Of a stretch of 64,000 nucleotides of DNA, positions 1-16,581 are shown piece after piece. Below the pieces are notes generated by a model. The model had not been told where the DNA came from and ran no database searches. It saw only the letters and a program-made list of their open reading frames with translations. The position numbers and the translations under genes were made by a program. This DNA comes from an uncultured Candidatus Micrarchaeota archaeon (GTDB taxonomy: Archaea; Micrarchaeota; Micrarchaeia; Anstonellales; Bilamarchaeaceae), in NCBI GenBank assembly GCA_963714085.1, contig OY970229.1:288001-352000 (forward strand), given 5' to 3'. Each line of letters begins with the position of its first letter. The stretch's first letter is position 1.

Positions 1-237
1 TAGAAAATCTGATATTCTAATCTCAAAGGTTCAAATCTCTGGCAGCACATACTTTGCTGCCTGTTGCGCCCTAACCACTACCCTAATTAACTTTGACGCT
101 CTCTTTTGCATGGGATTGCCTTTTGGGGGGAGTCTGAACCCTAGTAAGCTCAGACGATGATACCCATTGGCATAACTAGCAATTAAGCATTTCTACAGAG
201 CCATAAAACTTATAATCCTTAGACAAGTAAGGAAATC

Positions 238-744
238 ATGAAGAATACGCTATGCCTCATCCTATGTTTGACGTTGTTGGGTAGTGGTTGCGTATCCAAA
301 GAGGGCCCCATAACCCAGCCCACAACAGGTTCGAATGAAGTGAATTGTAATAATATCCTCACCCCCGAACTGATAATTGTTATGCTTAACGGCTCCGCCT
401 CTTGGGTGTATGGCCCGCAAATGCAACCTGGTTTTAAGTTCTCTTCAGAGTTCATGAATAACCCGCCAGTTTGTCACTATGGAAATGCCATGGGGCAGAA
501 TGTGAATCACCTCTACTGCCAACCCTACGAGCATGGAACGCATATAGTATATGCGAGTGCAGAAAGAACGAATGTGAGCAGTAATGGAACAATCAGCAGC
601 CATGAATGTTATATTATAAATGTAAATGAGCTTGCACCAGGAGACGAAACGCCTCCCGAATTTCAAGCTGAGCTTAAGATGTACCCGAATGCAATTGCGT
701 ATCAGGCGTGGGATATAGTCAATGTAACGTGTGAACCGTGCTAA
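238..744 (+). CDS. Secreted/lipoprotein-like hypothetical protein (168 aa)
   Basis: N-terminal K + hydrophobic stretch ending LLGSGC (lipobox-like); several Cys; TTATAA box ~25 nt upstream of the ATG. Confidence 0.75.
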   Translation: MKNTLCLILCLTLLGSGCVSKEGPITQPTTGSNEVNCNNILTPELIIVMLNGSASWVYGPQMQPGFKFSSEFMNNPPVCHYGNAMGQNVNHLYCQPYEHGTHIVYASAERTNVSSNGTISSHECYIINVNELAPGDETPPEFQAELKMYPNAIAYQAWDIVNVTCEPC

Positions 745-853
745 ACGAAATAATGCGACCAAAGCGGGCCGCAAATCTGGTTTTGAATGCCGACTGTCAG
801 ATTAGATTAGTACTAAGAATCAGCGTAAGCTCTGCGCAATTCAAGCTCTGAAA

Positions 854-1750
854 TTAAATCTTGAGGTGTGCTCTCAGGGCGGGAACAATTCGGTAATAAC
901 AGATGAAACAGACACCACCATAGATATAACCGAAGTAGTGAGTGAGTATATCAACAAAACTTCCATTAACGGCTGGATTTGGCGGGAATATTAATAGCGG
1001 CGATGCAAAGAAAAGAAGGACTAGGATTGTCAAAAAAAGATAATTGGCGGGGTTGTCTGTTTTTTCGGATTGTATCTGTTTCAAAATTTCGTGTATTTCA
1101 TTTTTATCGAAGTATATACACCCGATCATAAAAGCAAAAATGATGCATGGATACAGTATATTTTGGTAGTAAGGGAGATAAATGACTGCTAGAAGAAACG
1201 CAGGGTACAAGATAAAAATAAGAAGCACCCCGTCTTTCAATAAATCTTTCCCAATTTTTTTACTTGCAAACAGAACAAGAATGAATAGAGTAAAAGCAAA
1301 AATTCCAGCCTCGATACCGGATAATCCTTGAGAAGTTTGCTCCTTTTGGAAATACCCCGGGGAAACGATTGGTGAGAGGTAAGTGACTAAGAAAAAGGTT
1401 AATGCGAGAATAATTATGAGATATAAGTAATTCCGTTTTTCGTTTATCTTAGTCAGTACCAATAACTGGGGGATGACAAATAAGAAATATGCAATCAGGT
1501 TATTTGAGTAATGGGTAAAATTAGTATGGACAAAGTTTGACGTGAAATATTGCCACCAACTGGGGTTTTTCATTTGAAGGACTAGCAGATCATGGATGTT
1601 CGATGGAACAAACATCAAAAGCGTGGCTATGCATGGCAACGCCAGAATAATTGCTAAATCAATCGGGCTGATAAGACTGAGTGTACCTCGAAGTTCGGTA
1701 AATATGTTTGCGATTTTTTGTATGTTGATTGATAATTTGGGTATTCTCAT
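854..1750 (-). CDS. Rhomboid-family intramembrane serine protease
   Basis: Multi-TM protein with WWQYFTSNFVHTNFTHYSNN (rhomboid loop/TM2 H-x4-H-x3-N), GLSG (GxSG catalytic Ser) and THYFG (catalytic His, HxxG). Confidence 0.75.
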   Translation of the reverse strand: MRIPKLSINIQKIANIFTELRGTLSLISPIDLAIILALPCIATLLMFVPSNIHDLLVLQMKNPSWWQYFTSNFVHTNFTHYSNNLIAYFLFVIPQLLVLTKINEKRNYLYLIIILALTFFLVTYLSPIVSPGYFQKEQTSQGLSGIEAGIFAFTLFILVLFASKKIGKDLLKDGVLLIFILYPAFLLAVIYLPYYQNILYPCIIFAFMIGCIYFDKNEIHEILKQIQSEKTDNPANYLFLTILVLLFFASPLLIFPPNPAVNGSFVDILTHYFGYIYGGVCFICYYRIVPALRAHLKI

Positions 1751-1818
1751 AGCGGTACCCTGTTATAAGGCATGATTGGTGATGTAAAACTTTAAATTAA
1801 TGCCTGCGATTTGAGAAT

Positions 1819-1953
1819 TCATTCAGAGTTGTACCTATCCTTCAAAAACAGATACGCTAACCCTAATATAACGCCTGCCCCGGCAACAGCAAACAAACTT
1901 ACCCCCATAACCAACGCGATTGAAAGCGCGCTGGATAAAATATCCATATTCAT
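1819..1953 (-). CDS. Small single-pass membrane protein (44 aa, MNMDILSSALSIALVMGVSLFAVAGAGVILGLAYLFLKDRYNSE), not in the ORF track
   Basis: Hand-translated; GAGGT just before the ATG, TTTAAATA-type box ~35 nt upstream, long hydrophobic helix followed by KDR. Confidence 0.6.
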   Translation of the reverse strand: MNMDILSSALSIALVMGVSLFAVAGAGVILGLAYLFLKDRYNSE

Positions 1954-2036
1954 GACCTCGTTTATTTACTACTTGTTTTTTCAGTCTATTTAAATGTGTG
2001 TTAACACGTAGACATCCAAGACTGAAGAGACGGCCG

Positions 2037-2069
2037 AGACTGCGAATCTCTCGTAGAGATTCGTAGTCT
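2037..2069. repeat. 13-7-13 inverted repeat AGACTGCGAATCT-CTCGTAG-AGATTCGTAGTCT
   Basis: Arms are reverse complements with one mismatch; a related copy lies at 2927-2959. Confidence 0.85.
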
Positions 2070-2165
2070 GAGCTTTGACTACATGCCCCATATTCAGATT
2101 ATTATTCCATTCAGAATATCTTTAACAGTAATATTAATATAATCGGAATATCATACGGGTATATT

Positions 2166-2897
2166 ATGGTCATGGAACGCAAGGGCTCCCGACGGCACCA
2201 AAAAACCGGATTCCTCGGATTGTTCAGGAAGAAGCTGAAGAACAAAAAACAATGGAAAGCGGATTGCGACTGGAAGGTCAGCGGAGAGAAGGACGGCATT
2301 GTTTATTACGCGGTGATAGACTTCCGTTTAAAAGAAAAAAGCGGATTGCTTTTCGATGAGAACGGGGTGGCTTACCATAAGGCCAGGTTCGAGGCGGACA
2401 CGGGCTTTGACGCGATCGATGGCGAGGATCACAGGACTTTCGATAGGGAACTTGTAGGGAATACCTGCTTGGCGAGCGGAATGATGAACCGATGCAGCCA
2501 ACTGCTGGAAGACACCTATACGGTCATGCCAAAGAAAGGCGCGAAAACCTGGAGGGAGTTTCTCGTATATTTCAACAGAAATAAGAGAAGGATTTGCGAT
2601 GAGGTGAACGAGATAGTGTCCGAGGCCGAGTACGCCGGTGATGTTTACGGTAAGAAAAAGCAGAGCAAAGACAAGATAATCAATGAGATTGCAAGGAAAA
2701 CCTTTGAACCGATAGAACCCTCAACGCTGGACCGATTTGATGTCTTCAAGGCGTGGTATACCGAAAAACTGAGGGGTCTGGATTATGCGAATATGGCCAA
2801 CAGAGTGGAATGGAAAGAAGAAGGGAAGATACGGGCGCTGGTAGTACGGGAATTAGAGGAACATGGATTTGTGAGAACAAAAGAAGAAAAACGATGA
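2166..2897 (+). CDS. Hypothetical cytoplasmic protein (243 aa)
   Basis: Long ORF with plausible charged composition; AT-rich promoter-like region upstream; no motif recognised. Confidence 0.7.
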   Translation: MVMERKGSRRHQKTGFLGLFRKKLKNKKQWKADCDWKVSGEKDGIVYYAVIDFRLKEKSGLLFDENGVAYHKARFEADTGFDAIDGEDHRTFDRELVGNTCLASGMMNRCSQLLEDTYTVMPKKGAKTWREFLVYFNRNKRRICDEVNEIVSEAEYAGDVYGKKKQSKDKIINEIARKTFEPIEPSTLDRFDVFKAWYTEKLRGLDYANMANRVEWKEEGKIRALVVRELEEHGFVRTKEEKR

Positions 2898-2913
2898 ATC
2901 GGGATTTCTTGCC

Positions 2914-2959
2914 GAGATTCGCAATCTGATTGCGAAACTTTATCAGAGATTCACAGTCT
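2914..2959. repeat. Second copy of the 13-7-13 site (TGATTGCGAAACT-TTATCAG-AGATTCACAGTCT, 2927-2959) plus an extra arm GAGATTCGCAATCT
   Basis: Same geometry and orientation as 2037-2069; arms differ by 3 and 2 nt. Confidence 0.75.
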
Positions 2960-2976
2960 GATTATGGATCCCTAGA

Positions 2977-3801
2977 TTAATTTTCAAAGACTTCGAACTC
3001 TTGCATATACCACCAATGAGTTCCATCTGTTTGATCTGCGGTAATTCGCAGGTATCTGGCATCAACTGAAGTGAAATTGTATTGAATTGGAACTTGTGGG
3101 GGACTCGAAGTTTCAGTTACTAACCTAGTCCAGTTATTACCGTCAAATGAATAATCAATATGCCACTTGACCGGGAAGTCAGACCATGAAGCGCCAGGAT
3201 TTGCGTATATCACAATTCTTCCAACGTTTGTTTGCGAACCGAGATCAACCTCCCACCAATTACCTGCATAATTAGCAGTGTTGGTTGCAAAACGATGCGC
3301 ATCCGTGTAAGTTGTAATATCGCCGTCTAGTGCCCCTTCCGCAGTTTGACTGTTTATGCTAGCTGTTGCGGTCTTACCTAACGCAAGATTAGTTCCTTGT
3401 GTTGTTATATCTGTACTTCGATTATACGAAATGCCTTGCTCTGTTTGAGACGTGGATATATTTGTTTCGTTATTCTGTTCTGAATTAATATTCGAAGAGC
3501 TACTAGCTTGTGTTTGGGCTGTTGGACAATCTCCACATTTGCTACATCTATATGATTGAATCCTCTTTTGTAAGGCTGGACTACCCCCACCGTATTCAAG
3601 TAAATCACAAACTTCTTGGCAATGGTCCTGATTTAGACCCGAGTCAGTCCGATTAACCATGCATAGAGCAACACAATAACTATTATCACTGTCGAGTATC
3701 CCTCTTCCAGGGCAATTTAAGCCAGTTTTCGAAGAGCTACCAGTGCATCCAAAAACTAAAAACAAACTTACCAAAATAAAAATAATGCAGATTTTATTCA
3801 T
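2977..3801 (-). CDS. Lipoprotein-like protein with C-terminal discoidin (F5/8 type C) carbohydrate-binding domain
   Basis: Signal ending VFGC; Cys-rich region; S/T/N linker; NLALGKTATAS...ALDGD...WWEVDLG...YSFDGNNW...ARYLRI...EFEVF is the F5/8C pattern. Confidence 0.85.
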   Translation of the reverse strand: MNKICIIFILVSLFLVFGCTGSSSKTGLNCPGRGILDSDNSYCVALCMVNRTDSGLNQDHCQEVCDLLEYGGGSPALQKRIQSYRCSKCGDCPTAQTQASSSSNINSEQNNETNISTSQTEQGISYNRSTDITTQGTNLALGKTATASINSQTAEGALDGDITTYTDAHRFATNTANYAGNWWEVDLGSQTNVGRIVIYANPGASWSDFPVKWHIDYSFDGNNWTRLVTETSSPPQVPIQYNFTSVDARYLRITADQTDGTHWWYMQEFEVFEN

Positions 3802-4012
3802 ACGTTCTCCCTCAATAAATGATAATGCTCGGTTGTTTAAATATTTGCGTAGTCGACCTGTAGTAAGAGCTAACTCTGATTTTACGAATTTGACGCTTAA
3901 TTCCCTTGTATTTCCCTATAATTTCCCTAATCCCACGTCTGAGAGCTTTTTAACATGGAAATATCCACTGTCTCATTCAAGAATTTTATAACACCTAAAA
4001 TCCAACTATATC

Positions 4013-4216
4013 ATGGCTGACCCGTCTGTGATCGTGGATAAACTGCTCAATTACCTTTCAAAAGAACCGGCCTCAACCCACCAGATCGTATGCGCTACGA
4101 AGCTGCACAACCAAACCGTTAAGAAATACCTCCGGATAATCGAGGATGTCCAGAATTCGCCGAAGTTGAAGAAAGAAGTGCGCGGAATACGGGTATTTTT
4201 CAGAAAAGACGTTTAA
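4013..4216 (+). CDS. Small winged-helix DNA-binding protein (67 aa)
   Basis: LLNYLSKEPASTHQIVCATKLHNQTVKKYL helix-turn-helix followed by a beta-wing (GIRVFFRK). Confidence 0.65.
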   Translation: MADPSVIVDKLLNYLSKEPASTHQIVCATKLHNQTVKKYLRIIEDVQNSPKLKKEVRGIRVFFRKDV

Positions 4217-4385
4217 GTCATTTTTGGTGAAAAATAACATATTTTCAGGTAAAATATGTGAAAACACACATAGATTTTGCTCCCATTATATCGCTATAGC
4301 ACTTCAAAACGTAGTTTTCAAGAAACATTTATAAACATTTTCATACACAATAGATATTAGGGTAAAATGATCGAAAGGTCATGGG

Positions 4386-5468
4386 ATGGGTTTCCAACCA
4401 ATCGCAACGGAGGTTTCCAGCAAAAACCGGATACTCCTAGATGAATTGGCCCTTACGTCCAGGTTCTCTAATAAAAACAGCCTTGGTTGCCGCCAGTTGG
4501 CCGGAGAACGCGTCCTGGAAGCGATAAAACGGCTTCCTGAGGGTCATCCGTCCGAGAACCTATTCATCTGCGGTCCTTCGGGTTCGGGCAAAACCGCCCT
4601 GGTCAGGTGGGCTGTGGACAAAATGGAACAAACTCAAAGGATATTATGTATATACTCCAACTGCCACAGATACAACACCTCGATGTCCATATTTACCAGG
4701 ATTGCGGATGCTTTGGGCGAACCGGTTTCAAGAAGGGGGCGGGCAGTCGATGAGATATTCGACCATATTGTAAAGCTCATGCGCTACTCAAAGAAGCCCG
4801 TCCTTCTCGTTCTTGATGATATTGAAGCGCTTGTCCAGTACGATGGCGCCCGGATACTCCAGAATATCGCGCATTTGGAGGAAGAAAACGTCCATTTCGC
4901 CATTATCGGGATATCCGATAACGAAACCGCGCTTTCGAAGCTTCCGCAAGAAACCCGCGAAGTACTAAGGTTCACAAAAGTAGAGATTCCCCAGTTCACT
5001 CGCGAGGAGCTGCTGGCCCTTCTTAAGGAACGTGCATCCATGGGTTTGCGGCCTGGTTCTTACGACAGTTCGCTGATAGAAGCAATAGCGGGCATAAGCG
5101 AGGCGGTCAATGGAGGAGGTCGTTTCGCTCTTGAAATCTTATGGAGGGCTGCGAGAAGTTCGGAGGAACGGGGACTTGACTCGATACCCCAGCAGGAACT
5201 GGAACGCATAAAGGACAGCTTAGGGCTCCAAGAACGGGAGTTATCCCAGGGCGAGCTTGAAATAGTCAGATTGCTCAAGGACGGCCCTAAAACATCCTCG
5301 ATGCTTTACGCATTGTTCTGGAGGAAAATATCGAAATCCCAGCGGCAGATACGCAACTACATTCATTCCATGGAAGAAAAGGGCATTGTCGAGACCCGAT
5401 TTGTGCGAGGCAAGTACAACTACGGCTCAACGATCATACAACTTAGCGGAGGCTGGGAGCATGACTAA
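4386..5468 (+). CDS. cdc6: Cdc6/Orc1-like replication initiator AAA+ ATPase (island-encoded)
   Basis: NLFICGPSGSGKT Walker A, IYSNC, LVLDDIE Walker B, IIGISD sensor 1, ELLALLKER and R-x-ALEIL-x-RAA helices, C-terminal wHTH. Confidence 0.85.
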   Translation: MGFQPIATEVSSKNRILLDELALTSRFSNKNSLGCRQLAGERVLEAIKRLPEGHPSENLFICGPSGSGKTALVRWAVDKMEQTQRILCIYSNCHRYNTSMSIFTRIADALGEPVSRRGRAVDEIFDHIVKLMRYSKKPVLLVLDDIEALVQYDGARILQNIAHLEEENVHFAIIGISDNETALSKLPQETREVLRFTKVEIPQFTREELLALLKERASMGLRPGSYDSSLIEAIAGISEAVNGGGRFALEILWRAARSSEERGLDSIPQQELERIKDSLGLQERELSQGELEIVRLLKDGPKTSSMLYALFWRKISKSQRQIRNYIHSMEEKGIVETRFVRGKYNYGSTIIQLSGGWEHD

Positions 5469-5640
5469 CGGGTTAATGATATCGAAAACGAGAGTTAAGA
5501 TGTTTCTCAAGAAGCAGGATATGCGAGTTTCGGAGAATTTTTACCGGGCTTTGGATGATGAGATTCAAGCTATCCTTTTGAAAGTGACAAAGCGAGCCAA
5601 GAGCGATAAACGCACAACCGTTCTTGCGCGTGATGTTTAG
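5461..5640 (+). CDS. Minimal histone-fold protein (59 aa, alpha3-truncated type)
   Basis: MTNGLMISKTRVKMFLKKQDMRVSENFYRALDDEIQAILLKVTKRAKSDKRTTVLARDV: RVS loop 1, long alpha2, terminal RxTxxxxD; ATG overlaps the cdc6 3' end. Confidence 0.8.
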   Translation: MTNGLMISKTRVKMFLKKQDMRVSENFYRALDDEIQAILLKVTKRAKSDKRTTVLARDV

Positions 5641-5779
5641 CACAAATAACCGACGATATTTATAGCAATTGCGAATTCAATTGTTCTAAGCCTTAAAACG
5701 CTTGAATCCAGCCGCTGGTGGGCCTGTTTTTTCGCCTTTCCGACAATTGCAAATCGCAATTGTTCATACGATTTGGGCG

Positions 5780-8035
5780 TCAATTCGCTTGAATTCGCTC
5801 AGAAACTCGTGCGGAATTATTGAATAATCTATCGAGGGTTTCTTTAATTTCAGTTCGAAGTATGACGTTGCCGTAAGGATCATAAGTTGATTTAAGCTCA
5901 CGGTTCGTCACCAAAATATAGTAAGTTTTGAACTCGGCTTTAACCTTATCGAATTTCTGTTTCAATGTTTTTTCCTCATCGTGTGAACCTGTTTCAACTT
6001 CAAACGCTATGTTCTCCTTGTCAAAAACAACCACGTCCGGCTTGACGGTATCATAGAGTAACGCGTTCTTTCCGTACTTCTCAATCTCCATCTGCAGTAT
6101 CCTGCAAAAATAGTAATGCTCCGGCCCCTGATTGGTTGGGGGCTTGACGAGCGTTTTTTGTCCTTTGCCCGGGCCAAACGGATTCGTGTCCAATTCAACA
6201 TAGCCGTGTTCCCTGCACATCCTGGCCTGCTCCTCGGTCAGATCCTTGACGAAGAAAAAACCCTCCCTGAGATTGAACCGCTTGGGTGGCCGTTGCACCG
6301 GCCTGTCTACGGTCTCGATTTTCCCGCTCGTTTGCTTCGGATCGGTGGTGAACAGGTTGTGCATGATCTCCGGTACCGTTATCTGGAACTTGAAATTCCC
6401 CTCCTCGCTTAACAGCAGGCCACTCCCCTTGTTGCATTTTATCAGGTAATCCCTTTCCTCTGCGTTCAGCTTCAGCGAGGCGCTAATAGCCTCTATGTTG
6501 CTGGTGCTCTGCTTCATCAGGATTTTCGTGGCCGACAGGTTGAGTATAGATTTTCCCGCGTCCGCCTTGTCGAAGTCCTCTATCTCCTGGGTTATGAATC
6601 CGAGCCCGACCCCGTATTTTCTCGCCGCCTTGATGTATTCAAGGACGTAATCCTCGGCGTTCTTGCTGCGCAGCAGCCCCCAGCCCTCGTCTATGAAGAT
6701 GAATTTCGGGGCCTTGTCCGCCTTCATCCTGCGCGAAACGAAGCCGAGGATGATGAACATGGCCAGGGGTTTAAGCGGCATCGGGATTTTACTCAAATCG
6801 AAGTTCACGATCCTGGCCTTCAGTTCCACGTTGGTGCGCCGGTCAAGGAAAGCGAAGAACCCGTTTTTGGAGTACATCGAAAGCCTGTTGACCAGAACCT
6901 CCAGCGTCCGGATATCTCTCGACCCCTTTTTCCTCTCCTTGTACATCTTCACGCTTTCGTCGTAAACGTCCGAGAACGTGGGCGGCTCGTTCTTCCAGGT
7001 CTTCTCTTCGAGCGGCAATATTCCGGATTCCTCGTAAGCCCTCGGAAGCAGCCGGTTGAGCGCTCCCTTCTGCGATTCCGTGAGGCCGCCGACTATTATG
7101 TCAAAGGCGGCTATCAGTTCCAGCATTTTTGCCTGGAAGCTCTGGTCGCCCAAATCGAACAGGTTGATGCTGTCCTCGGAATCCTGCGCTATCTGGACGT
7201 TCTGCCCTCCCAGCGACGCCACTGTTCCCGCATATTCGGCGTTCGGGTCTATGATGAATATGTCCGCTCCGGCATTGAAGAGGATCTGGACTATGAGGGA
7301 TTTGGCTGTGTAGCTCTTGCCCGAGCCGCTGGTTCCAAGGATGAAGAAGTGCTTGTTGCTGTACTTGTCAAAGTCCAGGTGTATCCTGTTGAGGGTTTCC
7401 AGCTCGTTCCCAAGGAAAACCCCCACCTTATCGGGTTTTGCCGGAGATATGAACGGGAATGTGGCCGCCAGGGAGTTGGTGGGGAATTCCTGCTGCACTC
7501 CCAGCTTGTCAGTGCCCAATGGGAGGCAGGAGCGCAGCGCCGGGGCCATCCGGAAATTGGCTGTTTTCGGTATGATCATTATGGCGTTCATGTTGGCCTT
7601 GCATTTTTCGGTCAACAGGTCGAGCTTGTCCAGGGAACTCTCCTTGTTGTTCACGTACAGCGACACGCGGAACAGCTTCTCCTCGCCCTTGTACAAGAGC
7701 TCGTGCAGATGCCGGGTGTCCGACAGCTTGATCTCCAGCGCCGGATTGGGCGTGCCTTTCTCCGTGCTCATGAACAGGTCTGCGGTCTGCTTGTTGATCT
7801 GGTCGTAGAGGAATATTATCGTCTGGTCTATGCTTGAGGGCTCGATGTGCAGGGAAATGTCGTAATTCTCGTTCTTGGACAGGAACGACCTGAGCCAGCC
7901 ATCATCTATTTTACGCGGGTACCCCACCGCTTCGATGACGCGGTAATAATATTCGTTCACCTTCGCATAATCCTTGCGGACCTCCATGTACGAGGGCATT
8001 ATGAGGCAAGTGAGAAGCTCGTCGTCGTTTATCAT
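5780..8035 (-). CDS. virB4: VirB4-like type IV secretion ATPase with C-terminal extension
   Basis: NKHFFILGTSGSGKS Walker A, IIDPNAEY, IFIDEGW Walker B, ARKYGVGLGFITQ, ILMKQ; N-terminal half resembles VirB4/TraC. Confidence 0.85.
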   Translation of the reverse strand: MINDDELLTCLIMPSYMEVRKDYAKVNEYYYRVIEAVGYPRKIDDGWLRSFLSKNENYDISLHIEPSSIDQTIIFLYDQINKQTADLFMSTEKGTPNPALEIKLSDTRHLHELLYKGEEKLFRVSLYVNNKESSLDKLDLLTEKCKANMNAIMIIPKTANFRMAPALRSCLPLGTDKLGVQQEFPTNSLAATFPFISPAKPDKVGVFLGNELETLNRIHLDFDKYSNKHFFILGTSGSGKSYTAKSLIVQILFNAGADIFIIDPNAEYAGTVASLGGQNVQIAQDSEDSINLFDLGDQSFQAKMLELIAAFDIIVGGLTESQKGALNRLLPRAYEESGILPLEEKTWKNEPPTFSDVYDESVKMYKERKKGSRDIRTLEVLVNRLSMYSKNGFFAFLDRRTNVELKARIVNFDLSKIPMPLKPLAMFIILGFVSRRMKADKAPKFIFIDEGWGLLRSKNAEDYVLEYIKAARKYGVGLGFITQEIEDFDKADAGKSILNLSATKILMKQSTSNIEAISASLKLNAEERDYLIKCNKGSGLLLSEEGNFKFQITVPEIMHNLFTTDPKQTSGKIETVDRPVQRPPKRFNLREGFFFVKDLTEEQARMCREHGYVELDTNPFGPGKGQKTLVKPPTNQGPEHYYFCRILQMEIEKYGKNALLYDTVKPDVVVFDKENIAFEVETGSHDEEKTLKQKFDKVKAEFKTYYILVTNRELKSTYDPYGNVILRTEIKETLDRLFNNSARVSERIQAN

Positions 8036-8902
8036 TCAGCGCACCTCCTTATCCGTGTTGAACGAATCATAGATCGTTATCCTGGAAAGATAGTCGTCGC
8101 CTATCTCGACATAGCCCTCGAAATACGACATGAGCAGCGATATGAGCTGGTTGTTCGTCAATCGTATGGCAACGAGCCCGCAGTAGCCCAGCCGTTCCTG
8201 TATCAACTCGGCCCGAAGATTCAGCTCCTTTACCTGGTCGTCCTCCTTGATTCGCCTGGTCATTGTGCGCTTATTTTCCAATGGGACTACGACGTAGTAG
8301 ATGCGCTCCTTTATGGCATGGCTTTCTATGAATTCGGTTTCGTATTTCCGGAATTCCTCGTATAGTTTCTTGAGGTTTTTAGCCCCGGACTTTTCTATGC
8401 GGGAATACTGGGCTGAATAATCCGGCTTCACGGAATTGACTGTGCGGACGATTATCTGTATCGGGAACGTGAGCTGGTTGAGGAATTCCCTGTAATTGAG
8501 GATCAGGGAGCGCTTTCTGGAATCGTCCATCAGCTCGAAGTTCACCGGCTTCACCAATACCACGGCGCGGAGCTCGCCGTTTTTCAGGAACATGGCGTTT
8601 CTTTCGATTTTTTTGACTTCTATGAACCCCTTCACCTTGGCGTCTAGGTACCCGCCAAGCCGTATGTCGGTCATGAACCCCAGCCAGGTCAGCAACTTGG
8701 TTTCTAAGTCGAAAATGGCGAAGCATACGCCAATCAACACGAATATCGATACCAGTGCGATTCTGGCTTCCTCAGGCAACGGCAAGCGATACGCCAAAGC
8801 AGCGATGACGAGGAACAATACGATGTACCCGAATTGCTTCAAGTCGAGATTGAGGAATATTTTCTCCTTGTATCTGATTGTGTCAGGTATGTCGTAACCC
8901 AT
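8036..8902 (-). CDS. PrgI/VirB3-like membrane protein fused to a TraC/VirB4-N-like domain
   Basis: YDIPDTIRYKEKIFLNLDLKQF then two TM helices (PrgI-like); VKPVNFELMD...FLNQLTFPIQI; probable ATG at 8902 with GTGAT RBS; abuts virB4. Confidence 0.65.
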   Translation of the reverse strand: MGYDIPDTIRYKEKIFLNLDLKQFGYIVLFLVIAALAYRLPLPEEARIALVSIFVLIGVCFAIFDLETKLLTWLGFMTDIRLGGYLDAKVKGFIEVKKIERNAMFLKNGELRAVVLVKPVNFELMDDSRKRSLILNYREFLNQLTFPIQIIVRTVNSVKPDYSAQYSRIEKSGAKNLKKLYEEFRKYETEFIESHAIKERIYYVVVPLENKRTMTRRIKEDDQVKELNLRAELIQERLGYCGLVAIRLTNNQLISLLMSYFEGYVEIGDDYLSRITIYDSFNTDKEVR

Positions 8903-8906
8903 AGTA

Positions 8907-9860
8907 TCACAGGAATGCAAGCAGCATGGCAACCTTCCAGCCTATTGATACAGCCGCGTTCAGGACGCGTAAAACGACCGGTACGAGCGAAAACACCGCC
9001 AATAGGTAGATCAACACGTTCACGAGCCCGATAAGCCCAAAACCAAGCATCAGGGCTATTCCCTGCACGAATCCACCGGCCAATACCGGATCCCCTGAAT
9101 TGAACAGGTATGTTAATGCGAGGATAAGCACTGCGTCAATGCTCGTCATGAAGATGATTATTACGATGAATTTCAGCATGAACAGGCCCCATTCCCTTGT
9201 GAACGGGATGAAATAGAGGAAAATCGCTATGGGAAACAGCAAAAGCAAGAAGGGAATCATCAAATAACGAATTATCAGGGTGAAGAACGTCAGGGCCGCA
9301 GCTGACAGGAAATTGAATGAAAGCACCATGGCGAACACAAGCGAGGAGAAAACGACCTGTATGCTCAGGAGATTGGCGAATGACGAATCGTATATTGACG
9401 TAGTTATGTACTGATTCAACTCGACAATCATCTTGAAGATGCTGAAGGAAAACGCGAGGGCGATAATGAGATATAGGACATTCTGGATCCAGAGTTTCGC
9501 CTTCGCACGTTTTTCAACATCCGCTGCCGTAGCGATATAATACGCACCAACCCCCATGAGCGCAAGGGTGTAAAGGCTCTCAAGAATGCTCATGATCTTC
9601 GCGTATGGAGTGCAGAAAAGGTCCAGATTAGGCCCGGTCACAATGAAAATCAACGAGTTATCGAGAAATTCCTTTGCCGAATATACGAATCCACTAACCA
9701 GGGAAGAGAAAAACTTCTCAACTATGCAGGTCGGCAGGTTGAAGATGACCTGAAGAAAGTTGGCATTATCCGGGCAGGATTGGTTAGTTATACTCACGTC
9801 AATGGAAGCGGAGTAAACGATTGAACTAATTACCAGCAATAAAACCAGGTACTTAAGCAA
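8907..9860 (-). CDS. VirB6/TrbL-like polytopic membrane protein
   Basis: Signal peptide, about 6 TM helices, LIIRYLMIPFLLLLFPIAIFLYFIPFTREW pattern; operon context. Confidence 0.7.
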   Translation of the reverse strand: MLKYLVLLLVISSIVYSASIDVSITNQSCPDNANFLQVIFNLPTCIVEKFFSSLVSGFVYSAKEFLDNSLIFIVTGPNLDLFCTPYAKIMSILESLYTLALMGVGAYYIATAADVEKRAKAKLWIQNVLYLIIALAFSFSIFKMIVELNQYITTSIYDSSFANLLSIQVVFSSLVFAMVLSFNFLSAAALTFFTLIIRYLMIPFLLLLFPIAIFLYFIPFTREWGLFMLKFIVIIIFMTSIDAVLILALTYLFNSGDPVLAGGFVQGIALMLGFGLIGLVNVLIYLLAVFSLVPVVLRVLNAAVSIGWKVAMLLAFL

Positions 9861-11010
9861 CAGGCATCACCCTCTTGACGGTTAGATAGATGACGTATAC
9901 GACTATGGCGAACAAAGCGGCATCGAACAAAGAATCGAAGAAACCAGGCTGGATTGGTTCGACTTTCGGGATTTTCGGGCTATTGGAGAGGTTCGAGTTA
10001 TTGCAGCCGAAGATGGTTTTCGATGAGAAATGGTCGGCTATCGTAAAGGAGCAATTCGCGGAATATGGGGCCAATATCGTAAAATTGGATCCATTCTGCT
10101 CCAAAACACTAAGCCCGTAAGCCGAAGTCTTGTTTGCCGGAACGATTTCTTTGACAAGAATGTTGTACGGCCCCTCATCCCTTATCGTGTAGAGGTACTT
10201 CGTTTCGTAGAAGCTGGAATTCCCTATGCGAAAAAACACGTTGGAATCGTTCGCTTTGATCCTGATTTCCGTTAGGTTGTTGTAGTATGCCAGAATCGCA
10301 TAATTCGAGGTCGGATTGAAGGGCACATATTTGATGTTTTTGGAATCCGAAACAGTCAGAGAATCCTTGAAACTGGCTGTGATGTAGTAATCGCAGCTAA
10401 CCGAACAGCTGTGACGGGAGCAATGTCTTATCAAGGTATAGCGATCCACCAGATATTCGCTTCGGACCGTGAGGTAAGCGGTCATTGCCGAGCTCGTATT
10501 TTGGACTGAGATTGAATAGTCGTACCCGCAAATCCTGAATTTATCATTACAATCTCCTGGTAGCATTCTAGTATCGACAACGAAACTGAAACTCTGCCTT
10601 ATCAACGGCTGGCTGGAGGCATTTACAAGATAAGTTCCATTATCGTAGACTGAGGGATCCAAGTAAGCAATGCTAATCCAGGCATCCTTGATATTAGCCG
10701 AACTTTTGGAGGCATTTGGAGGGTATTTTCCGAATCGGATAGCGTTATTCCATTGCCATATTTGATCAAAAGAGTCGTTAGTTATGGATTCGGCTATGAA
10801 AAGCTTCTTGTCCTCGGTGGTATTGAACGCATTTGATAATAGGCAGATTTCGCCGAAATTCCAGTCGCAGTAGTGGAGAATCGTATCAGCGGGTTTTGAT
10901 GGCGCGGAATAGGCGGTCGCAACAGTATAATCGTGATAGGGGTAACTAGGACAGCTCGGGACCGCTACGGATAGGCCAATCAAGAACAGGAAAAATACGG
11001 CCTTATCCAC
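9853..11010 (-). CDS. Secreted Cys-containing protein with C-terminal TM anchor (T4SS operon)
   Basis: Signal peptide, many N-x-S/T sequons, C-terminal hydrophobic helix + KR; overlaps both neighbours. Confidence 0.75.
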   Translation of the reverse strand: MDKAVFFLFLIGLSVAVPSCPSYPYHDYTVATAYSAPSKPADTILHYCDWNFGEICLLSNAFNTTEDKKLFIAESITNDSFDQIWQWNNAIRFGKYPPNASKSSANIKDAWISIAYLDPSVYDNGTYLVNASSQPLIRQSFSFVVDTRMLPGDCNDKFRICGYDYSISVQNTSSAMTAYLTVRSEYLVDRYTLIRHCSRHSCSVSCDYYITASFKDSLTVSDSKNIKYVPFNPTSNYAILAYYNNLTEIRIKANDSNVFFRIGNSSFYETKYLYTIRDEGPYNILVKEIVPANKTSAYGLSVLEQNGSNFTILAPYSANCSFTIADHFSSKTIFGCNNSNLSNSPKIPKVEPIQPGFFDSLFDAALFAIVVYVIYLTVKRVMPVA

Positions 11011-11221
11011 AATAATGACCTCCGGAGAACATGGAGCCGATTAAAGGGGCAAGATAGACGATGCAGAGGCCGATGATCACGCCCAGGATTACGTCTTTCC
11101 ACTGCTTTCGGAATATCGGATCCTGGCTGATGGTCAGCATAAGGCCGGAATACGCAATCATCACGATCCCGGCGACTGTGGCTAATAGCTTGATGCTGTC
11201 CGCTATGGCCTCAAGGGTCAA
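11003..11221 (-). CDS. VirB2/TrbC-like pilin (72 aa)
   Basis: Two TM helices joined by a charged loop (AYSG...QDPIFRKQWKDVILGVIIGL...LAP). Confidence 0.7.
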   Translation of the reverse strand: MTLEAIADSIKLLATVAGIVMIAYSGLMLTISQDPIFRKQWKDVILGVIIGLCIVYLAPLIGSMFSGGHYCG

Positions 11222-11222
11222 G

Positions 11223-11531
11223 CTACCACCCGCAGATACCCGAGGAATTGACCAGGTTCTTGACCAGCACCGGGGCCAGCCAGATGATGACCAGGCCGAT
11301 TATAACCCCGCTTAATAGCGCCTTGGCCGCGTTTCGCTCTGTCATCTCGTGCGAGCTCGCAAGGGTGAACCCCGCGTATGCGGCTACAAGAACGCCAGCT
11401 ACCGTGCCAAAAACCTGAATCATGTTGTAAAGCCGGCAGACGGGCTGATCGCTCGGAATGACCAGATCCGCGAAGCTCAAACCTAACAAAAGCAGGCCTA
11501 TGGCTAGATATTTCCTATTCAACCGTATCAC
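11223..11531 (-). CDS. VirB2/TrbC-like pilin with leader peptide (about 100 aa)
   Basis: Leader + two TM helices, AYAG...ERNAAKALLSGVIIGLVIIWLAP; clear paralog of the adjacent pilin. Confidence 0.75.
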   Translation of the reverse strand: MIRLNRKYLAIGLLLLGLSFADLVIPSDQPVCRLYNMIQVFGTVAGVLVAAYAGFTLASSHEMTERNAAKALLSGVIIGLVIIWLAPVLVKNLVNSSGICGW

Positions 11532-12339
11532 CTCGTATGATTATCCTGAATTCGGGATTTTTCTTCTGAAATCCGATTTTCGACTTGATGAAATCCAGAT
11601 AAGCCGGATTGATCTCGTACCCTATGGATTTCCTGCCCAGGTTTCGAGCTGCACGGATGGATGTGCCGCTGCCGAGAAATGGATCCAGGCAGGTTTCGCC
11701 TTCATAGGTGTACAATCTGATCAAGGCTTCTGGAAGCGCGATGGGAAACATGGCCGGATGGTCGTCCTTGTTATGCTTATTCTTGGTTTCCGGGACCATT
11801 TCCCAGATATCATTGCCCCAATGGGATCTGGCATACTCCAAATCGATCTTTGAGGCGGCTTTTTCCTCTTTTGAGATTCTTTTGAAGTCGAATTTGCCCT
11901 TTCTGAAAACAAGGATATGCTCGTAGATGTTGTTCGGATAGTAGTACATCGGATAGGGATGTTGGATGAACGTCCCGAACCGCTTGGAGCTTCCCAGGCC
12001 CGAAGGCTTCTTCCAGAGGATATCTTCCCGGTATTCAAAGCCGCTTTTCTGGAGAATGCCTACGAAATGGCATGGGATGGGGTACTTCTTCTCCCCGCTG
12101 ATGATGTCCGAGATGTTCACGCAGATGTAACGGCCGTTGTCAAGGACGCGGTAGCATTCTTTGAATATCTGGTACATGGCCCGGAGGTAGGCCTCGTATT
12201 CGTTGATGGAGCCGATGTTCTCGGTTCCATAGTCCTTGACATTGAAATAAGGCGGGCTGGTTACAATGAGCTGTATCGAGCCGTCCTTTATCTCAGCCAT
12301 GTTCCGCGAATCGCCGATAACCACGGTGCTTTGGGCCAT
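11515..12339 (-). CDS. N4-cytosine/N6-adenine DNA methyltransferase (beta class)
   Basis: GDS, LIVTSPPY catalytic motif IV before HPAMFP and DPFLGSGT SAM-binding motif I, IGYEIN. Confidence 0.92.
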   Translation of the reverse strand: MAQSTVVIGDSRNMAEIKDGSIQLIVTSPPYFNVKDYGTENIGSINEYEAYLRAMYQIFKECYRVLDNGRYICVNISDIISGEKKYPIPCHFVGILQKSGFEYREDILWKKPSGLGSSKRFGTFIQHPYPMYYYPNNIYEHILVFRKGKFDFKRISKEEKAASKIDLEYARSHWGNDIWEMVPETKNKHNKDDHPAMFPIALPEALIRLYTYEGETCLDPFLGSGTSIRAARNLGRKSIGYEINPAYLDFIKSKIGFQKKNPEFRIIIRGDTVE

Positions 12340-12550
12340 GGCTACATAGATATCTCATTGGGCTATTTTATGATTGATGCGAAATTTGATGGCGGGATGA
12401 GAAAAGAAGATTTGTTGTAACGAGCTGGACCGAACTACTCTCCAGTTCAGCTATGTTTCGGGGCATGTCACTCAGTCAGTGATCATTAGCTGATGTTATA
12501 CGACGATTAGCACGGAGTGTAGAGAAGAAATGACAACTATCTGATTAGCA

Positions 12551-13576
12551 TCAGTCACTTACATCCTCCGCTTCTAGAGACAATTCGAGTATGTAATCAT
12601 AAAATCTCTTTTTGAGATGCCCCCGTTCTATCCTATGATAATCTTTGGATAGGCTCGTAAGCAACAGGATAAGATCTGATCTTACTTTCGGAATTGCCTC
12701 TTCAAATGGAACTGCTAAAGATACCTCGCTCCACCTGACAAGGAAGTAGTATATCCTATAAAACTCGCCTAAAAACTGGGAAAATGTATATTCATTTCCT
12801 CCGATTACAACGAATTTTCTTTCGCCTGAGTCATAGAAGATATTGGAATGAGAAATCTTATCTCTAAAAATTTTTGAGGTCTGCCCTTTACCGAATATAG
12901 ACCTATTTTCAAGTGGTATCGCTAGCACTTCTTCTAAAACATGATTTATGAGCCCCACAGTGGCATGTTCACCATTACCTCTATTGATTTGCCCCATAAA
13001 TTGTTTAGTTTTATCTTTGAATTTTAACTTACCGTTCTGTTCAGTTAAATACCAAAATAATTTCCTATCCACACTGAATGCAATTAACTCGTATAAATTA
13101 ACAAATGTCCAAAGTAATACTGGTGCCAGCAGAATTTCAGGGATTGCGGATTTTCTATTCTCTATTTCACTTACTACTTCTGAAAGGAAAAATAGTTGAC
13201 CGGATAGTTCTAAAAAATCTTCAAGTTTTGTTGATTGAGTAGAAACTAAAAAAGCTATGACTTTTTCATCATCGCCACTTGTAATATACCGATTTTCCTT
13301 ATTTATCTTTTCAGATGTACTTCTTGTAATATCAATGAAGGTCGATAATTGTTCTGTATTAAGTACTATGTCGATATTATTTGCACAGTTCGAAAAATAA
13401 TTTGAGACAACTATTGGCGATCTAGATAAAAGTACTTTTTCTAAACGGAAAAGGAATTCATTATGGGTTAGTCGTGATGGAAATGCAATATAATCTTTTT
13501 GTGCAAGATATTTGATAAATTGTCCTTCTTCCATAATGATGTTATATTGGTATCTGAATTTAACACTACCCGGCAT
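12551..13576 (-). CDS. Hypothetical helical protein with RxxxxH motif (HEPN-like); true start may be the ATG at 13534
   Basis: 341-aa AT-rich ORF; FRDKISHS motif in the C-terminal third; next to an RM locus. Confidence 0.6.
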   Translation of the reverse strand: MPGSVKFRYQYNIIMEEGQFIKYLAQKDYIAFPSRLTHNEFLFRLEKVLLSRSPIVVSNYFSNCANNIDIVLNTEQLSTFIDITRSTSEKINKENRYITSGDDEKVIAFLVSTQSTKLEDFLELSGQLFFLSEVVSEIENRKSAIPEILLAPVLLWTFVNLYELIAFSVDRKLFWYLTEQNGKLKFKDKTKQFMGQINRGNGEHATVGLINHVLEEVLAIPLENRSIFGKGQTSKIFRDKISHSNIFYDSGERKFVVIGGNEYTFSQFLGEFYRIYYFLVRWSEVSLAVPFEEAIPKVRSDLILLLTSLSKDYHRIERGHLKKRFYDYILELSLEAEDVSD

Positions 13577-16373: not shown

Positions 16374-16581
16374 GTACAGTTGGGTCCGAAATGGTTTGAT
16401 TTGAGTCCTAGACGCGACACTTGCTTCCAAGCCTCTCTTTTTAACCTCTGCTCTTCAGATGAGGATTCGGCAAGAACGGACCCCTCTGGCTCAAACTGAG
16501 ACCAGATCTGAACGCGCTAGGGCAGGATTTGAGACCAGCTCTGAGGACACCACCAGGGTAAGACCTCAGAGCAGATCAGAA

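Follow-up and report, generated by a model that had tools for sequence, protein, structure and literature searches.

An FtF-type minimal histone gene overlapping an Orc1/Cdc6 gene on an integrative, conjugation-type element of Micrarchaeota

An Orc1/Cdc6-family initiator gene and a gene for a 59-aa histone that starts inside its end form a conserved backbone module in a family of Micrarchaeota elements, and a histone thus seems to belong to the regular replication equipment of such a mobile element. We analyzed this pair in a window of 64,000 nt, by which we mean the whole stretch of DNA examined (positions 288,001-352,000 of contig OY970229.1, assembly GCA_963714085.1), from an uncultured Candidatus Micrarchaeota archaeon (DPANN; Bilamarchaeaceae). 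On balance, we think that the region is probably, if by no means surely, the replication or maintenance module of a 19,983-bp integrative conjugation-type element, with the histone as the architectural partner of the initiator. The module is laid out as follows (window coordinates):

3984-3991, + strand: TTTTATAA, possible TATA-box-like candidate, 22 nt before the wHTH ATG
4013-4216, + strand: winged-helix/HTH (wHTH) protein, 67 aa, putative regulator (Pfam HTH_5)
4328-4335, + strand: TTTATAAA, possible TATA-box-like candidate, 51 nt before the cdc6 ATG
4386-5468, + strand: Orc1/Cdc6-family AAA+ initiator, 360 aa
5448-5452, + strand: GGAGG, Shine-Dalgarno-like, inside cdc6, 8 nt before the histone ATG
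5461-5640 (stop included), + strand: histone, 59 aa, alpha3-truncated FtF type
5727-5732, + strand: T6 run, candidate terminator, 87 nt past the histone stop

The histone ATG lies within the end of cdc6 (ATGACTAA), as an earlier note on this DNA had observed, and overlaps the cdc6 stop by 8 nt (5461-5468). A mechanical list of ORFs gives an 84-aa frame from a TTG at 5386 instead of the 59-aa histone; the ATG at 5461 was preferred because homologues are 55-59 aa long and align from residue 1. G-rich motifs like GGAGG also precede the histone start in relatives. Together, the overlap and the ribosome-binding-like site in cdc6 suggest that the histone would be made from the same message as the initiator and in step with it. 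The T6 run sits in the 139-bp convergent gap between the histone gene and virB4. The wHTH protein scores below the cut-off of HTH_5 (E 7e-4, 19.8 bits, cut-off 22). The earlier note had grouped its gene with the other two; the cdc6-histone link is indeed tight, but the wHTH gene is more loosely attached, being present in 10 of 15 extended loci and at varying distance.

In search of an origin, we scanned the module and the whole element for repeats (repeat search, Tandem Repeats Finder) and found short two-copy repeats only; no significant repeat or iteron lies near the module, and no origin was located. Two candidate motifs were rejected. GGTTTCCA, which occurs twice at the 5' end of cdc6, reached its window count in 16 of 100 shuffles, is absent from the same place in 15 relatives and reflects a conserved N-terminal peptide of Cdc6. 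The total in the window of TTTCCCTAWT, found three times around the wHTH gene, was reached by 22 of 100 shuffles.

The element that carries the module is integrated in the chromosome and has a GC content of 44.2%, compared with 57.3% for the genome. It is bounded by direct repeats of 93 bp (1 mismatch, 81 bp exact) that overlap the 3' end of tRNA-Leu(GAG); the final 13 nt of the right copy are the tRNA 3' end. The left copy and the integrase lie 3.4-2.1 kb before window base 1. An integrative conjugative element (ICE) is expected to have a site-specific integrase and to be flanked by repeated att sites at a tRNA gene. Both are seen here and, with the GC contrast, support the island that had been suspected. 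For a circular form we looked at assembled contigs (depth 1-6) from two DNA samples, X1 (share 0.78, probably the source) and X2 (small share); no joint was reported and no contig spans the stretch, a result that speaks neither for nor against a circle. The remaining features of the element are listed here in window coordinates unless marked as genome positions:

Genome 284519-284611: attL, left copy of the 93-bp repeat, outside the window
Genome 284707-285906: tyrosine integrase, just inside the left repeat
1-4012: left cargo part of the element
238-744, + strand: ORF of the left cargo
854-1750, - strand: rhomboid-like ORF of the left cargo
2166-2897, + strand: ORF of the left cargo
2977-3801, - strand: F5/8-type-C secreted protein of the left cargo
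5780-8035, - strand: VirB4/TraG-like conjugation ATPase, 751 aa (Pfam P-loop_TraG 8.3e-23), convergent with the histone gene
8036-8932, - strand: PrgI/VirB3-like membrane protein, weak match (Pfam PrgI 1.6e-4, 22.6 bits, cut-off 27)
8907-9860, - strand: polytopic protein, 317 aa, no Pfam or NCBIfam match, syntenic in relatives
9853-11010, - strand: exported protein, 385 aa, no Pfam or NCBIfam match, syntenic in relatives
11003-11221 and 11223-11531, - strand: two VirB2/TrbC-like T4SS pilins (Pfam T4SS_pilin 8.2e-09 and 1.3e-06)
11515-12339, - strand: N6/N4 DNA methyltransferase (Pfam N6_N4_Mtase 1.2e-50)
12551-13576, - strand: ORF, 341 aa, no family match
14043-15065, - strand: C5 cytosine methyltransferase (Pfam DNA_methylase 4.4e-93)
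15076-16155, - strand: ORF, 359 aa, no family match
16502-16594 (genome 304502-304594): attR, right copy of the 93-bp repeat
16582-16665, - strand: tRNA-Leu(GAG), the integration target (ARAGORN)

An ordinary chromosomal origin region would also place an initiator gene here, since archaeal origins adjoin orc1/cdc6, but nothing else speaks for such a reading. The att repeats, the integrase, the tRNA target and the GC contrast all argue against it, and we consider it, like the idea that the small ORF is a chance frame, highly improbable.

T4SS-like transfer genes are present in the element. The VirB4-like ATPase and the two pilins score above their Pfam cut-offs and the PrgI-like protein, whose gene is syntenic among related loci, below its own, which sustains the description of the element as conjugative-type; the VirB4-like protein also matches NCBIfam conju_CD1110 (2.5e-82, below cut-off). 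Neither a coupling protein nor a relaxase was found among the Pfam, NCBIfam and PHROGs matches of the scanned element ORFs, and the histone, the wHTH protein and the element ORFs without a family match received no assignment from PADLOC or PHROGs. The Cdc6-like ATPase and the histone might have their role not in vegetative replication but in conjugative transfer, in entry exclusion or in defence. They might, for example, package or otherwise handle DNA for the VirB4 machine encoded convergently, or the ATPase might be an Orc1/Cdc6-like defence protein. The pair does stand tail to tail with virB4, at 139 bp in the window and ~150-450 bp in many relatives, and there are weak side matches to PADLOC mad8 (2.6e-05) and NCBIfam DS8_antiphage (2.8e-04). 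However, no defence family matches above noise, and by far the best matches of the protein, which take in the AAA+, lid and C-terminal parts, are to true Orc1/Cdc6 proteins of archaea. PMC6563490 also reads the Cdc6/Orc1 of thaumarchaeal ICEs as a replication initiator. We thus hold a role in transfer or defence to be improbable.

The Cdc6 protein matches Pfam Cdc6_lid (42.6 bits, cut-off 27) and AAA families, and finds 1fnn (8.4e-20), 2qby_A (9e-20) and 2v1u (6.6e-18) in the PDB. It matches NCBIfam TIGR02928 (E 8e-38, 130.2 bits) under the cut-off of 181.3, and equivalog models far under theirs, indicating a divergent Orc1/Cdc6 member that is no equivalog of the chromosomal initiators. The AAA+ Walker A and B motifs are kept, with G63, G66, G68 and K69 invariant and T70 and D144 at least 90% conserved across 16 element Cdc6 proteins. 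Cdc6_C (PF09079) gave no match in the element Cdc6, while the alignments to 1fnn and 2v1u reach residues 349 and 344 of 360 and cover their C-terminal parts. The sole Cdc6_C match in this genome (960923-961234) falls in a separate Orc1 at genome 960095-961234, a further point against an ordinary chromosomal locus. Around this Orc1, Tandem Repeats Finder detected no iteron array in a 3.8-kb locus that took in 1.5 kb on each side. In the phylogeny, a check that the earlier note had suggested, the 16 histone-linked Cdc6 proteins all belong to a single clade (SH-aLRT 99), separate from other chromosomal Orc1 genes. A chromosomal Cdc6 paralogue from the host family falls together with the element Cdc6, which also argues against a defence ATPase.

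The trees of the two proteins are incongruent. The window Cdc6 is closest to that of genome G387 (66% identity), whose histone is merely 39% identical to ours, and the window histone is closest to that of contig 15 of genome G315 (57-59%), where the Cdc6 is 42% identical. As far as the noisy tree of a 59-residue protein can tell, this conflict argues against a co-adapted protein-protein pair.

The 59-aa protein is a real alpha3-truncated histone of the face-to-face (FtF) type. Searching 1.84 billion proteins, its profile matched 203 representative clusters at E ≤ 0.001, placing the ORF far beyond chance, and dN/dS in four histone pairs was 0.09-0.13, so that the histone is under purifying selection; with the confident model described below, these results speak against a chance frame. 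Pfam gave no histone-family match at E ≤ 0.1, including DUF1931 (PF09123) and CBFD_NFYB_HMF (PF00808), and NCBIfam names no family either. The kinship is visible only in profile-to-PDB and fold comparison. The profile finds HTkC (9f2c, 4.3e-11), HBb (8fvx/8cmp, 4e-05) and HLp (9qt0, 1.3e-04). An AlphaFold model built on a 60-sequence alignment (pLDDT 90.7; helices 9-18, 27-48 and 56-58) superimposes on HTkC with a TM of 0.88 and an rmsd of 1.2 A, and the absence of a histone fold, which would have undone the earlier reading, was thus not what we saw. An initial model from three sequences had been poor (pLDDT 70.9, alpha2 and alpha3 merged) and was replaced by this one. HTkC, HLp and HBb account for the first nine fold matches in the PDB, and eukaryotic H4, H3 and NF-Y come next.

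The FtF class has an alpha3 of 3-4 residues, a shortened alpha2 and an RxTxxxxD motif at logo positions 54, 56 and 61, and is defined by a predicted closed tetramer of two dimers (PMC11390915). In the element histone, alpha3 has 3 residues (56-58) with the chain end at 59, alpha2 has 22, and the motif is present as R51, T53 and D58. Across 60 members of the family, R51 and D58 do not vary, and conservation of T53 is 90% or more. The class assignment proposed earlier therefore holds by PDB profile matches, motif, model fold and dimer-dimer interface, but the protein does not stop right after RTTVLARD: it ends ...RTTVLARDV, with V59 following the D. The tetramer arginine R45 is present, aligns with HTkC R45 and is at least 90% conserved in the family, whereas the interface asparagine (logo 52), also at least 90% conserved in the 60-member alignment, is replaced by D49, as it is in the two closest relatives (83% and 71% identical). 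As to DNA binding, the composition of the protein is 14 K/R against 7 D/E.

A four-copy model of the histone scored 0.85, compared with 0.00 for the best control, although this pass may reflect likeness to a similar complex already solved (9F2C). Partner pLDDT was at least 87, and runs agreed in at least 96% of contacts. Of proteins with solved structures, 20 of 30 pairs and 1 of 23 single chains came up to the mark used, counts that are only a rough guide to a four-copy model with its own alignment. In the model, one copy makes a full handshake with a second over residues 3-59 and contacts a third through residues 44-45, 48-49, 55 and 57-58, the FtF dimer-dimer surface, so that structure prediction of the oligomer favors the proposed class. 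The histone is thus predicted to form a closed tetramer of two dimers.

The nearest relative with a solved structure is HTkC (TK1040 of Thermococcus kodakarensis; PDB 9F2C; PMC11390915; preprint 10.64898/2025.12.06.692711). Both proteins have 59 aa, share 43% identity in the structural alignment, have a truncated alpha3 and R45, and end one residue past the motif position; this shared chain end matters because, in HTkC, R45 forms a bond with the terminal carboxyl group of the dimer opposite. The dimer-dimer surface predicted for the element histone is the same. The R45A mutant of HTkC is a dimer rather than a tetramer, and HTkC wraps DNA around its tetramer (PMC11390915; 10.64898/2025.12.06.692711), so by analogy the element histone may wrap or sharply bend DNA. 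The two differ in that HTkC is a highly expressed chromosomal chromatin protein of a host with two nucleosomal histones, while the element histone is mobile and its gene overlaps an initiator gene. HTkC also has, by alignment, E at the interface position (D49 in the element histone, N in the family) and ends ...ARHV, where the element histone has the full RxTxxxxD. HBb (Bd0055; 8fvx, 8cmp, 9ezz) and HLp (9qt0) have the same truncated fold (TM 0.84-0.90) but are chromosomal bacterial proteins; in the dimer histones of bacteria, the logo residues R48 and N52, which produce the tetramer, are absent (PMC11390915), whereas the element histone has the tetramer R.

We surveyed gene neighbourhoods in relatives. 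A search of genome contigs with the Cdc6 alignment found loci, the single Cdc6 protein giving no match there; the Cdc6 alignment had no match in viral contigs, nor tblastn of the histone in phage records. Of the 29 best histone loci in the class outside this genome, 15 have Cdc6 directly upstream. From the other side, 70 Cdc6-seeded Micrarchaeota loci include 22 with the histone directly downstream, 18 of them with a VirB4, PrgI-like, wHTH, integrase or methylase gene within 3 kb, whereas 47 of the 48 loci without histone show none of these genes; the remaining one has a wHTH gene, and its contig ends inside cdc6. The pair therefore recurs beside element genes. Of 16 pairs, 15 have the cdc6 stop and the histone start at a distance of -50 to +11 nt; in the remaining pair it is 430 nt. 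The recurring order of the element is int, wHTH, cdc6 and histone, then convergent virB4, prgI, two unknowns, two pilins and methylase. Among the 15 extended related loci, VirB4 occurs in 13, the integrase in 12 and a wHTH homologue in 10. By manual cross-reading, 17 of 24 VirB4 matches at E ≤ 1e-160 in other genomes have a histone match on the same contig; the other 7 have none, and contig ends may explain some of these. The element histone was found in 11 of 80 genomes of the host family, a patchiness that, like the Cdc6_C-bearing Orc1 elsewhere, sets the pair apart from an ordinary chromosomal locus.

A different role for the same gene is conceivable. The histone might be the general chromatin or "stealth" protein of the element, coating the AT-rich DNA of the element, or that of the host, and so silencing, protecting or compacting it, and its position behind cdc6 would merely reflect an operon expressed when the element is active; we regard this as a possible but rather unlikely explanation. 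Plasmid-borne nucleoid proteins include H-NS-like "stealth" proteins. The low GC content of the element fits this explanation, as do the incongruent phylogenies, which suggest modular exchange, and the genome-wide compaction of DNA by HTkC. The host itself has no second histone-fold gene that we detected and one Alba gene. Nonetheless, PF00808 histones were present in 8 and absent in 9 of 17 other genomes with the pair (manual cross-reading). The element histone is thus not tied to histone-poor hosts, and we rejected the idea that supplying chromatin to histone-less hosts is the rule. Also speaking against a general chromatin protein, the overlap or adjacency with the initiator is near-invariable though element Cdc6 proteins are only 31-66% identical.

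Halobacteria carry extra FtF histones on plasmids (PMC11390915). These DUF1931-annotated proteins belong to the same family and likewise sit on extrachromosomal replicons; tblastn of our histone against PLSDB found 23 plasmid records (35-48% identity), all typed non-mobilizable. Their neighbours include TBP, TFB and HTH genes, but in the four loci inspected (H1, H3, H7 and H8) there was no Orc1/Cdc6 within 4 kb in PLSDB gene tables, which are incomplete, and hence no initiator operon, unlike in the Micrarchaeota element. This, too, would suit a chromatin protein.

To return to the reading that we favor, the histone as architectural partner of the initiator, events might run as follows. After excision, the initiator would bind the element's own putative origin and recruit host replication machinery. 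By homology with HTkC, the histone's handshake dimers would pair up as a closed, ring-shaped tetramer able to wrap DNA or bend it sharply; this tetramer would act on origin-proximal DNA beside the initiator and would perhaps compact the 20-kb circle. IHF and HU are architectural cofactors of initiators at oriC and at plasmid origins, and the histone's role would parallel theirs. This likeness, and that to H-NS-like proteins, is functional only, that of a small DNA-bending or -wrapping protein with or beside replicon maintenance genes; those proteins have unrelated folds, are bacterial and are neither histones nor Orc1/Cdc6. The data directly show the structure of the genes, the histone's fold and family, the borders of the island, the conserved synteny and the purifying selection. 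From these we infer co-translation of the pair, the tetramer, DNA wrapping, action at an origin and autonomous replication of the element, and with them the "replication plus chromatin module" of the earlier note.

A bolder form of this reading, of which we remain doubtful, is that the histone became an obligate partner of Orc1/Cdc6, with the FtF tetramer bending or wrapping the origin so that a single initiator could open it and load the host helicase. If true, this would be a portable two-protein "ORC plus histone" replication module for hosts with or without histones of their own, the first archaeal histone dedicated to replication initiation and the first histone known among the core genes of a conjugative element family.

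Integrated elements of Thaumarchaeota are the nearest parallel to the whole element. These ICEs are tRNA-integrated and carry a tyrosine integrase, VirB4, VirB6-like and VirB2-like proteins, some with their own Cdc6/Orc1 (PMC6563490; PMC5797428). They differ in host phylum and in the presumed expression link between initiator and histone in the Micrarchaeota family; the word "histone" is absent from PMC6563490 and appears in PMC5797428 solely for host biology and in a reference. Our literature searches found no description of an initiator-histone pair on a conjugative-type element, in keeping with the earlier impression that such an operon is unusual.

FtF histones were not recognized until 2024, and what is known of their biology comes from a single chromosomal case. 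In the present family of DPANN mobile elements, such a histone accompanies a replication initiator in a conserved way, probably with a translational link, which offers a testable idea for what a minimal histone may do outside bulk chromatin, be it origin architecture or the chromatin of a mobile replicon. The element represents an undescribed ICE family in Micrarchaeota, hosts with almost no mobile elements characterized. Mobile elements move histone genes among archaeal lineages, including into a family largely stripped of nucleosomal histones, with PF00808 found in 4 of 80 genomes as against 282 of 320 in the remaining class sample.

The wHTH, Orc1/Cdc6 and histone genes lie next to one another on an integrated element, whose main features are as follows.

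Features of the element and its tRNA site (window coordinates)
4013-4216, + strand: wHTH gene, 67 aa
4386-5468, + strand: Orc1/Cdc6 gene, 360 aa
5461-5640, + strand: histone gene, 59 aa
convergent with the histone gene: VirB4-like ATPase gene
in the element: gene for a PrgI-like protein (weak match)
in the element: two conserved membrane or exported proteins without family assignment
in the element: two VirB2/TrbC-like pilin genes
in the element: N6/N4 and C5 DNA methyltransferase genes
16502-16594: right repeat copy, its last 13 nt being the 3' end of tRNA-Leu(GAG)
16582-16665: tRNA-Leu(GAG)
2-3 kb before the window start, just inside the left repeat: tyrosine recombinase, 399 aa

The histone ATG lies within the final cdc6 codons (ATGACTAA), an overlap of 8 nt, with GGAGG 8 nt 5' of it, and the histone would be co-translated with Cdc6. 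The 360-aa protein is an AAA+ protein of the Orc1/Cdc6 family (Cdc6_lid, 42.6 bits against a cut-off of 27); it matches TIGR02928 with an E-value of 8e-38 but at 130 bits, under the cut-off of 181. The closest solved structures are the archaeal Cdc6/Orc1 proteins 1fnn, 2qby_A and 2v1u (E 8e-20 to 7e-18), with alignments that extend to residues 344-349 of 360. The 67-aa protein showed a weak ArsR-type HTH match, below the cut-off (E 7e-4). Repeat and motif searches found no origin repeats. The sequence TTTCCCTA(W)(T) occurs as two tandem copies 11 nt apart 5' of the wHTH gene (3911-3931) and as one inverted copy 5' of cdc6 (4356-4365); it could be a candidate operator, with a window-wide count at chance level (reached by 22 of 100 shuffles). 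Where cdc6 is annotated to start, or just 5' of there, four related elements (L045, L046, L048 and L049) share an CATTTCCGC(A/G)G(A/T)AA-like partial palindrome that the window's element lacks.

The assembly is a single contig of 1,571,539 bp with 57.3% GC. The element is bordered by a 93-bp direct repeat (one mismatch; 81 bp exact) at genome positions 284519-284611 and 304502-304594, with no third copy in the genome, and measures 19,983 bp when one repeat and the DNA between the repeats are counted. Its interior has 44.2% GC, versus 55.6% and 60.1% in the flanks. Together with the integrase, VirB4 and pilins, these borders at a tRNA gene bear out the proposal in the earlier note that a mobile element carries its own Orc1/Cdc6. 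No relaxase or coupling protein was recognised among the element genes, and the low-depth contigs examined showed no junction of a circular form.

Several further observations concern the element's surroundings and content. After the N6/N4 methyltransferase, ORFs of 341 aa (12551-13576, - strand) and 359 aa (15076-16155, - strand) flank the C5 methyltransferase; no library searched gave them a name, and their position beside the methyltransferases suggests that they are putative restriction enzymes. Just outside attL, the left repeat copy, is a low-GC stretch with an unassigned 389-aa ORF (genome 283000-284500; 7000-8500 of locus L006), possibly left over from an earlier insertion. At 282937-282948, 12 nt match the portion of att at the tRNA end, no better than chance (E 6.2). 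Two integrases of the same family are found elsewhere in the genome (1287834-1289030 and 1308419-1309606; 41% and 61% identical), adjoining tRNA-Asn and tRNA-Glu, within low-GC stretches or next to them, and with no Cdc6, histone or VirB4 matches nearby. Three or more integrated elements are probably present in this genome. The remainder of the window is filled by giant minus-strand ORFs at 22666-42843 (6725 aa), 42762-49142 (2126 aa) and 49404-63998 (>4864 aa), with 60% GC and strong skew. In a second freshwater-sediment sequencing run from another study (X2), short contigs are identical to parts of the virB4 region (9865-10304 and 12427-12591 of locus L141) and 90-95% alike elsewhere; a related element is therefore present in another sample.

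Pfam, NCBIfam, PHROGs and PADLOC gave the 59-aa protein no name, and a word-indexed search returned no more than two close relatives, at 83% and 71% identity. A profile built from these three sequences matched 203 clusters at E <= 0.001 among 1.84 billion representatives, nearly all of them 53-66 aa long. Against PDB sequences, the profile matched HTkC of Thermococcus kodakarensis (9f2c, E 4.3e-11), the Bdellovibrio histone HBb (8fvx and 8cmp, E 4e-05) and the Leptospira histone HLp (9qt0, E 1.3e-04). An AlphaFold model from a 60-sequence alignment (pLDDT 90.7) comprises helices of residues 9-18 and 27-48, then a third of just three residues (56-58). Its top Foldseek match is again HTkC (TM 0.88, rmsd 1.2 A, 43% identity), followed by HLp and HBb and then by eukaryotic H4, H3 and NF-Y. 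The earlier note's claim of a histone-fold ORF starting inside the end of cdc6 therefore holds, as does its assignment to the alpha3-truncated class, whose definition published in PMC11390915 the protein matches. R51 and D58 are invariant in the 60-member alignment and R45, N49 and T53 are conserved in at least 90%; these columns (R51, D58, R45, N49, T53) correspond to positions 54, 61, 48, 52 and 56 of the face-to-face (FtF) logo. Of these logo residues the window histone lacks only the one at its position 49, which is D both in this protein and in its two nearest relatives. It was also said to stop right after RTTVLARD: the RxTxxxxD-type ending is there, but the chain stops one residue after the motif, as it does in HTkC. 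The histone is a new member of an already known class.

In a four-copy prediction, an oligomer model of the kind that the earlier note had called for, the histone scored 0.85 versus 0.00 for the best of three controls, with partner pLDDT of at least 87 and runs sharing at least 96% of contacts. Of proteins solved as pairs, 20 of 30 reach the same mark, against 1 of 23 solved as single chains; because the alignment was our own and the copies numbered four, these counts are only a rough guide here. The model pairs one copy with a second in a full handshake and brings it into contact with a third through residues 44-45, 48-49, 55 and 57-58, the FtF dimer-dimer surface. Because HTkC (9F2C) is solved, this result may reflect likeness rather than independent evidence. 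R45 aligns with HTkC R45, which in the crystal bonds the opposing dimer's C-terminal carboxyl and whose R45A mutant is a dimer (preprint 10.64898/2025.12.06.692711). The histone may form a tetramer that wraps DNA.

We searched 401 genomes of the class with the histone profile; the histone, Cdc6 and PF00808 tallies include two unpublished genomes (G086 and G298), on which no individual claim depends. The profile matched 116 genomes at E <= 0.001, including 11 of 80 in the host family (window's genome excluded). Weak matches are cross-matches to nucleosomal-type histones, with PF00808 and the profile hitting the same places on, for example, three contigs (G100:C26, G092:C3 and G120:C9). Of the 29 best histone places outside the window's genome, 15 have a Cdc6 homologue directly 5' of the histone on its strand, and eight have VirB4 within 1.5 kb. 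Among the 14 places lacking Cdc6, the histone follows a class II aminoacyl-tRNA synthetase at five and adjoins an integrase at one; at eight its neighbours are of other kinds or unassigned. These 14 look like a separate, chromosomal set; in a 58-column histone tree, 12 of them group apart from the Cdc6-linked histones (SH-aLRT 88, modest). When the 15 linked loci were extended to at most 20 kb, the gene order was int - wHTH - cdc6 - histone, then convergent virB4 - prgI-like - two unknowns - two pilins - N6 methylase, with VirB4 in 13, integrase in 12, wHTH in 10 and pilins in 8.

A survey seeded with Cdc6, and so not biased toward the histone, found a histone directly 3' in 22 of 70 loci (in one, split in two pieces). 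At least one further element gene lies within 3 kb in 18 of these 22, and none in four (L100, L101, L104 and L105). One of the 48 histone-free loci has wHTH, on a contig that ends inside cdc6, and the other 47 have no element genes. The two surveys are not independent since many records are the same genomes. Counted by hand, 22 adjacent pairs are spread over 17 other genomes. Of 16 pairs, 15 have the histone start between -50 and +11 nt from the cdc6 stop and one has it at 430 nt; G-rich ribosome-binding-like motifs lie upstream of the histone starts in relatives. Seeding with VirB4 gave 24 matches in other genomes at E <= 1e-160. The contigs of 17 of these also carry a histone match, within 8 kb in 15 cases and ~17 kb off in two, and those of the other seven carry none. 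The histone is under purifying selection, with dN/dS of 0.09-0.13 in four pairs of related elements. One cdc6-histone pair with wHTH and N6 methylase is on a 20.5-kb contig filed under a Nitrospirota bacterium MAG (JBFLXP010000010.1), most simply a binning error.

We built a quick-method tree of 38 chosen Cdc6 sequences (16 histone-linked, 22 unlinked), rooted on the window genome's own Cdc6_C-bearing Orc1. A single clade of 30 sequences (SH-aLRT 99) contains all 16 linked ones. Its remaining 14 sequences make up a subclade (99) of host-family copies, unlinked and present once per genome; the window genome's second Cdc6 (1436866-1437744), which shares 37% identity with the island protein, is one of them. 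Outside the clade lie seven further chromosomal Orc1 genes. These positions set the element initiator apart from the main chromosomal Orc1, the comparison for which the earlier note had proposed a phylogeny, and ally it with a paralogue specific to the family. The nesting of that subclade within the element clade is a hint that element and chromosome exchanged genes long ago, whichever way the transfer went. The window Cdc6 is closest to that of genome G387 (66% identity), whose histone is merely 39% identical, and the window histone is closest to one on contig 15 of genome G315 (57-59%), which suggests that modules were exchanged between elements. Such shuffling favours the main rival explanation, in which the histone is a general chromatin or silencing protein on AT-rich element DNA.

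The island gene is the only match to the alpha3 profile in the window genome, which has one Alba copy, no HU match and no PF00808 match at E <= 0.1; with the assembly 87.65% complete, absence of other histones is unproven. Across the class sample PF00808 was found in 286 of 401 genomes, including every sampled genome in most other families (e.g., 30/30, 78/78 and 64/64), and in only 4 of 80 in the host family, with 0 of 31 in genus g5; a host-family sample had 6 of 81 above cut-off. Of the 17 other genomes with the pair, eight have a PF00808 histone and nine have none, and thus the element histone is not tied to histone-poor hosts.

Extra FtF histones are known from Halobacteria plasmids (PMC11390915), and tblastn found them in 23 haloarchaeal plasmid records; these copies also favour a general chromatin or silencing role. 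They differ from the Micrarchaeota pair in having no Orc1/Cdc6 within 4 kb at the four loci inspected (PLSDB gene tables are incomplete). On plasmids NZ_CP034146.1 and NZ_CP101155.1, an FtF/DUF1931 histone gene has a TFB-family gene nearby or a TBP gene immediately after it, a different, transcription-factor kind of neighbourhood. Some thaumarchaeal integrative conjugative elements (ICEs) carry Cdc6/Orc1 but, unlike the Micrarchaeota elements, no histone is described in the relevant passages of PMC6563490 and PMC5797428. Full-text literature searches yielded no description of a Cdc6-histone operon or of these elements (the PMC11390915 supplements may list the proteins), in keeping with the earlier impression that the operon is unusual. 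Conserved across an archaeal ICE family, the initiator-histone operon is a new form of kinds already known. The near-invariable physical coupling to cdc6 favours a cofactor over a general chromatin or silencing protein. Our combined findings confirm the original observation and support its first reading, a replication and chromatin module carried by the element; the histone would act with the initiator at an element origin.
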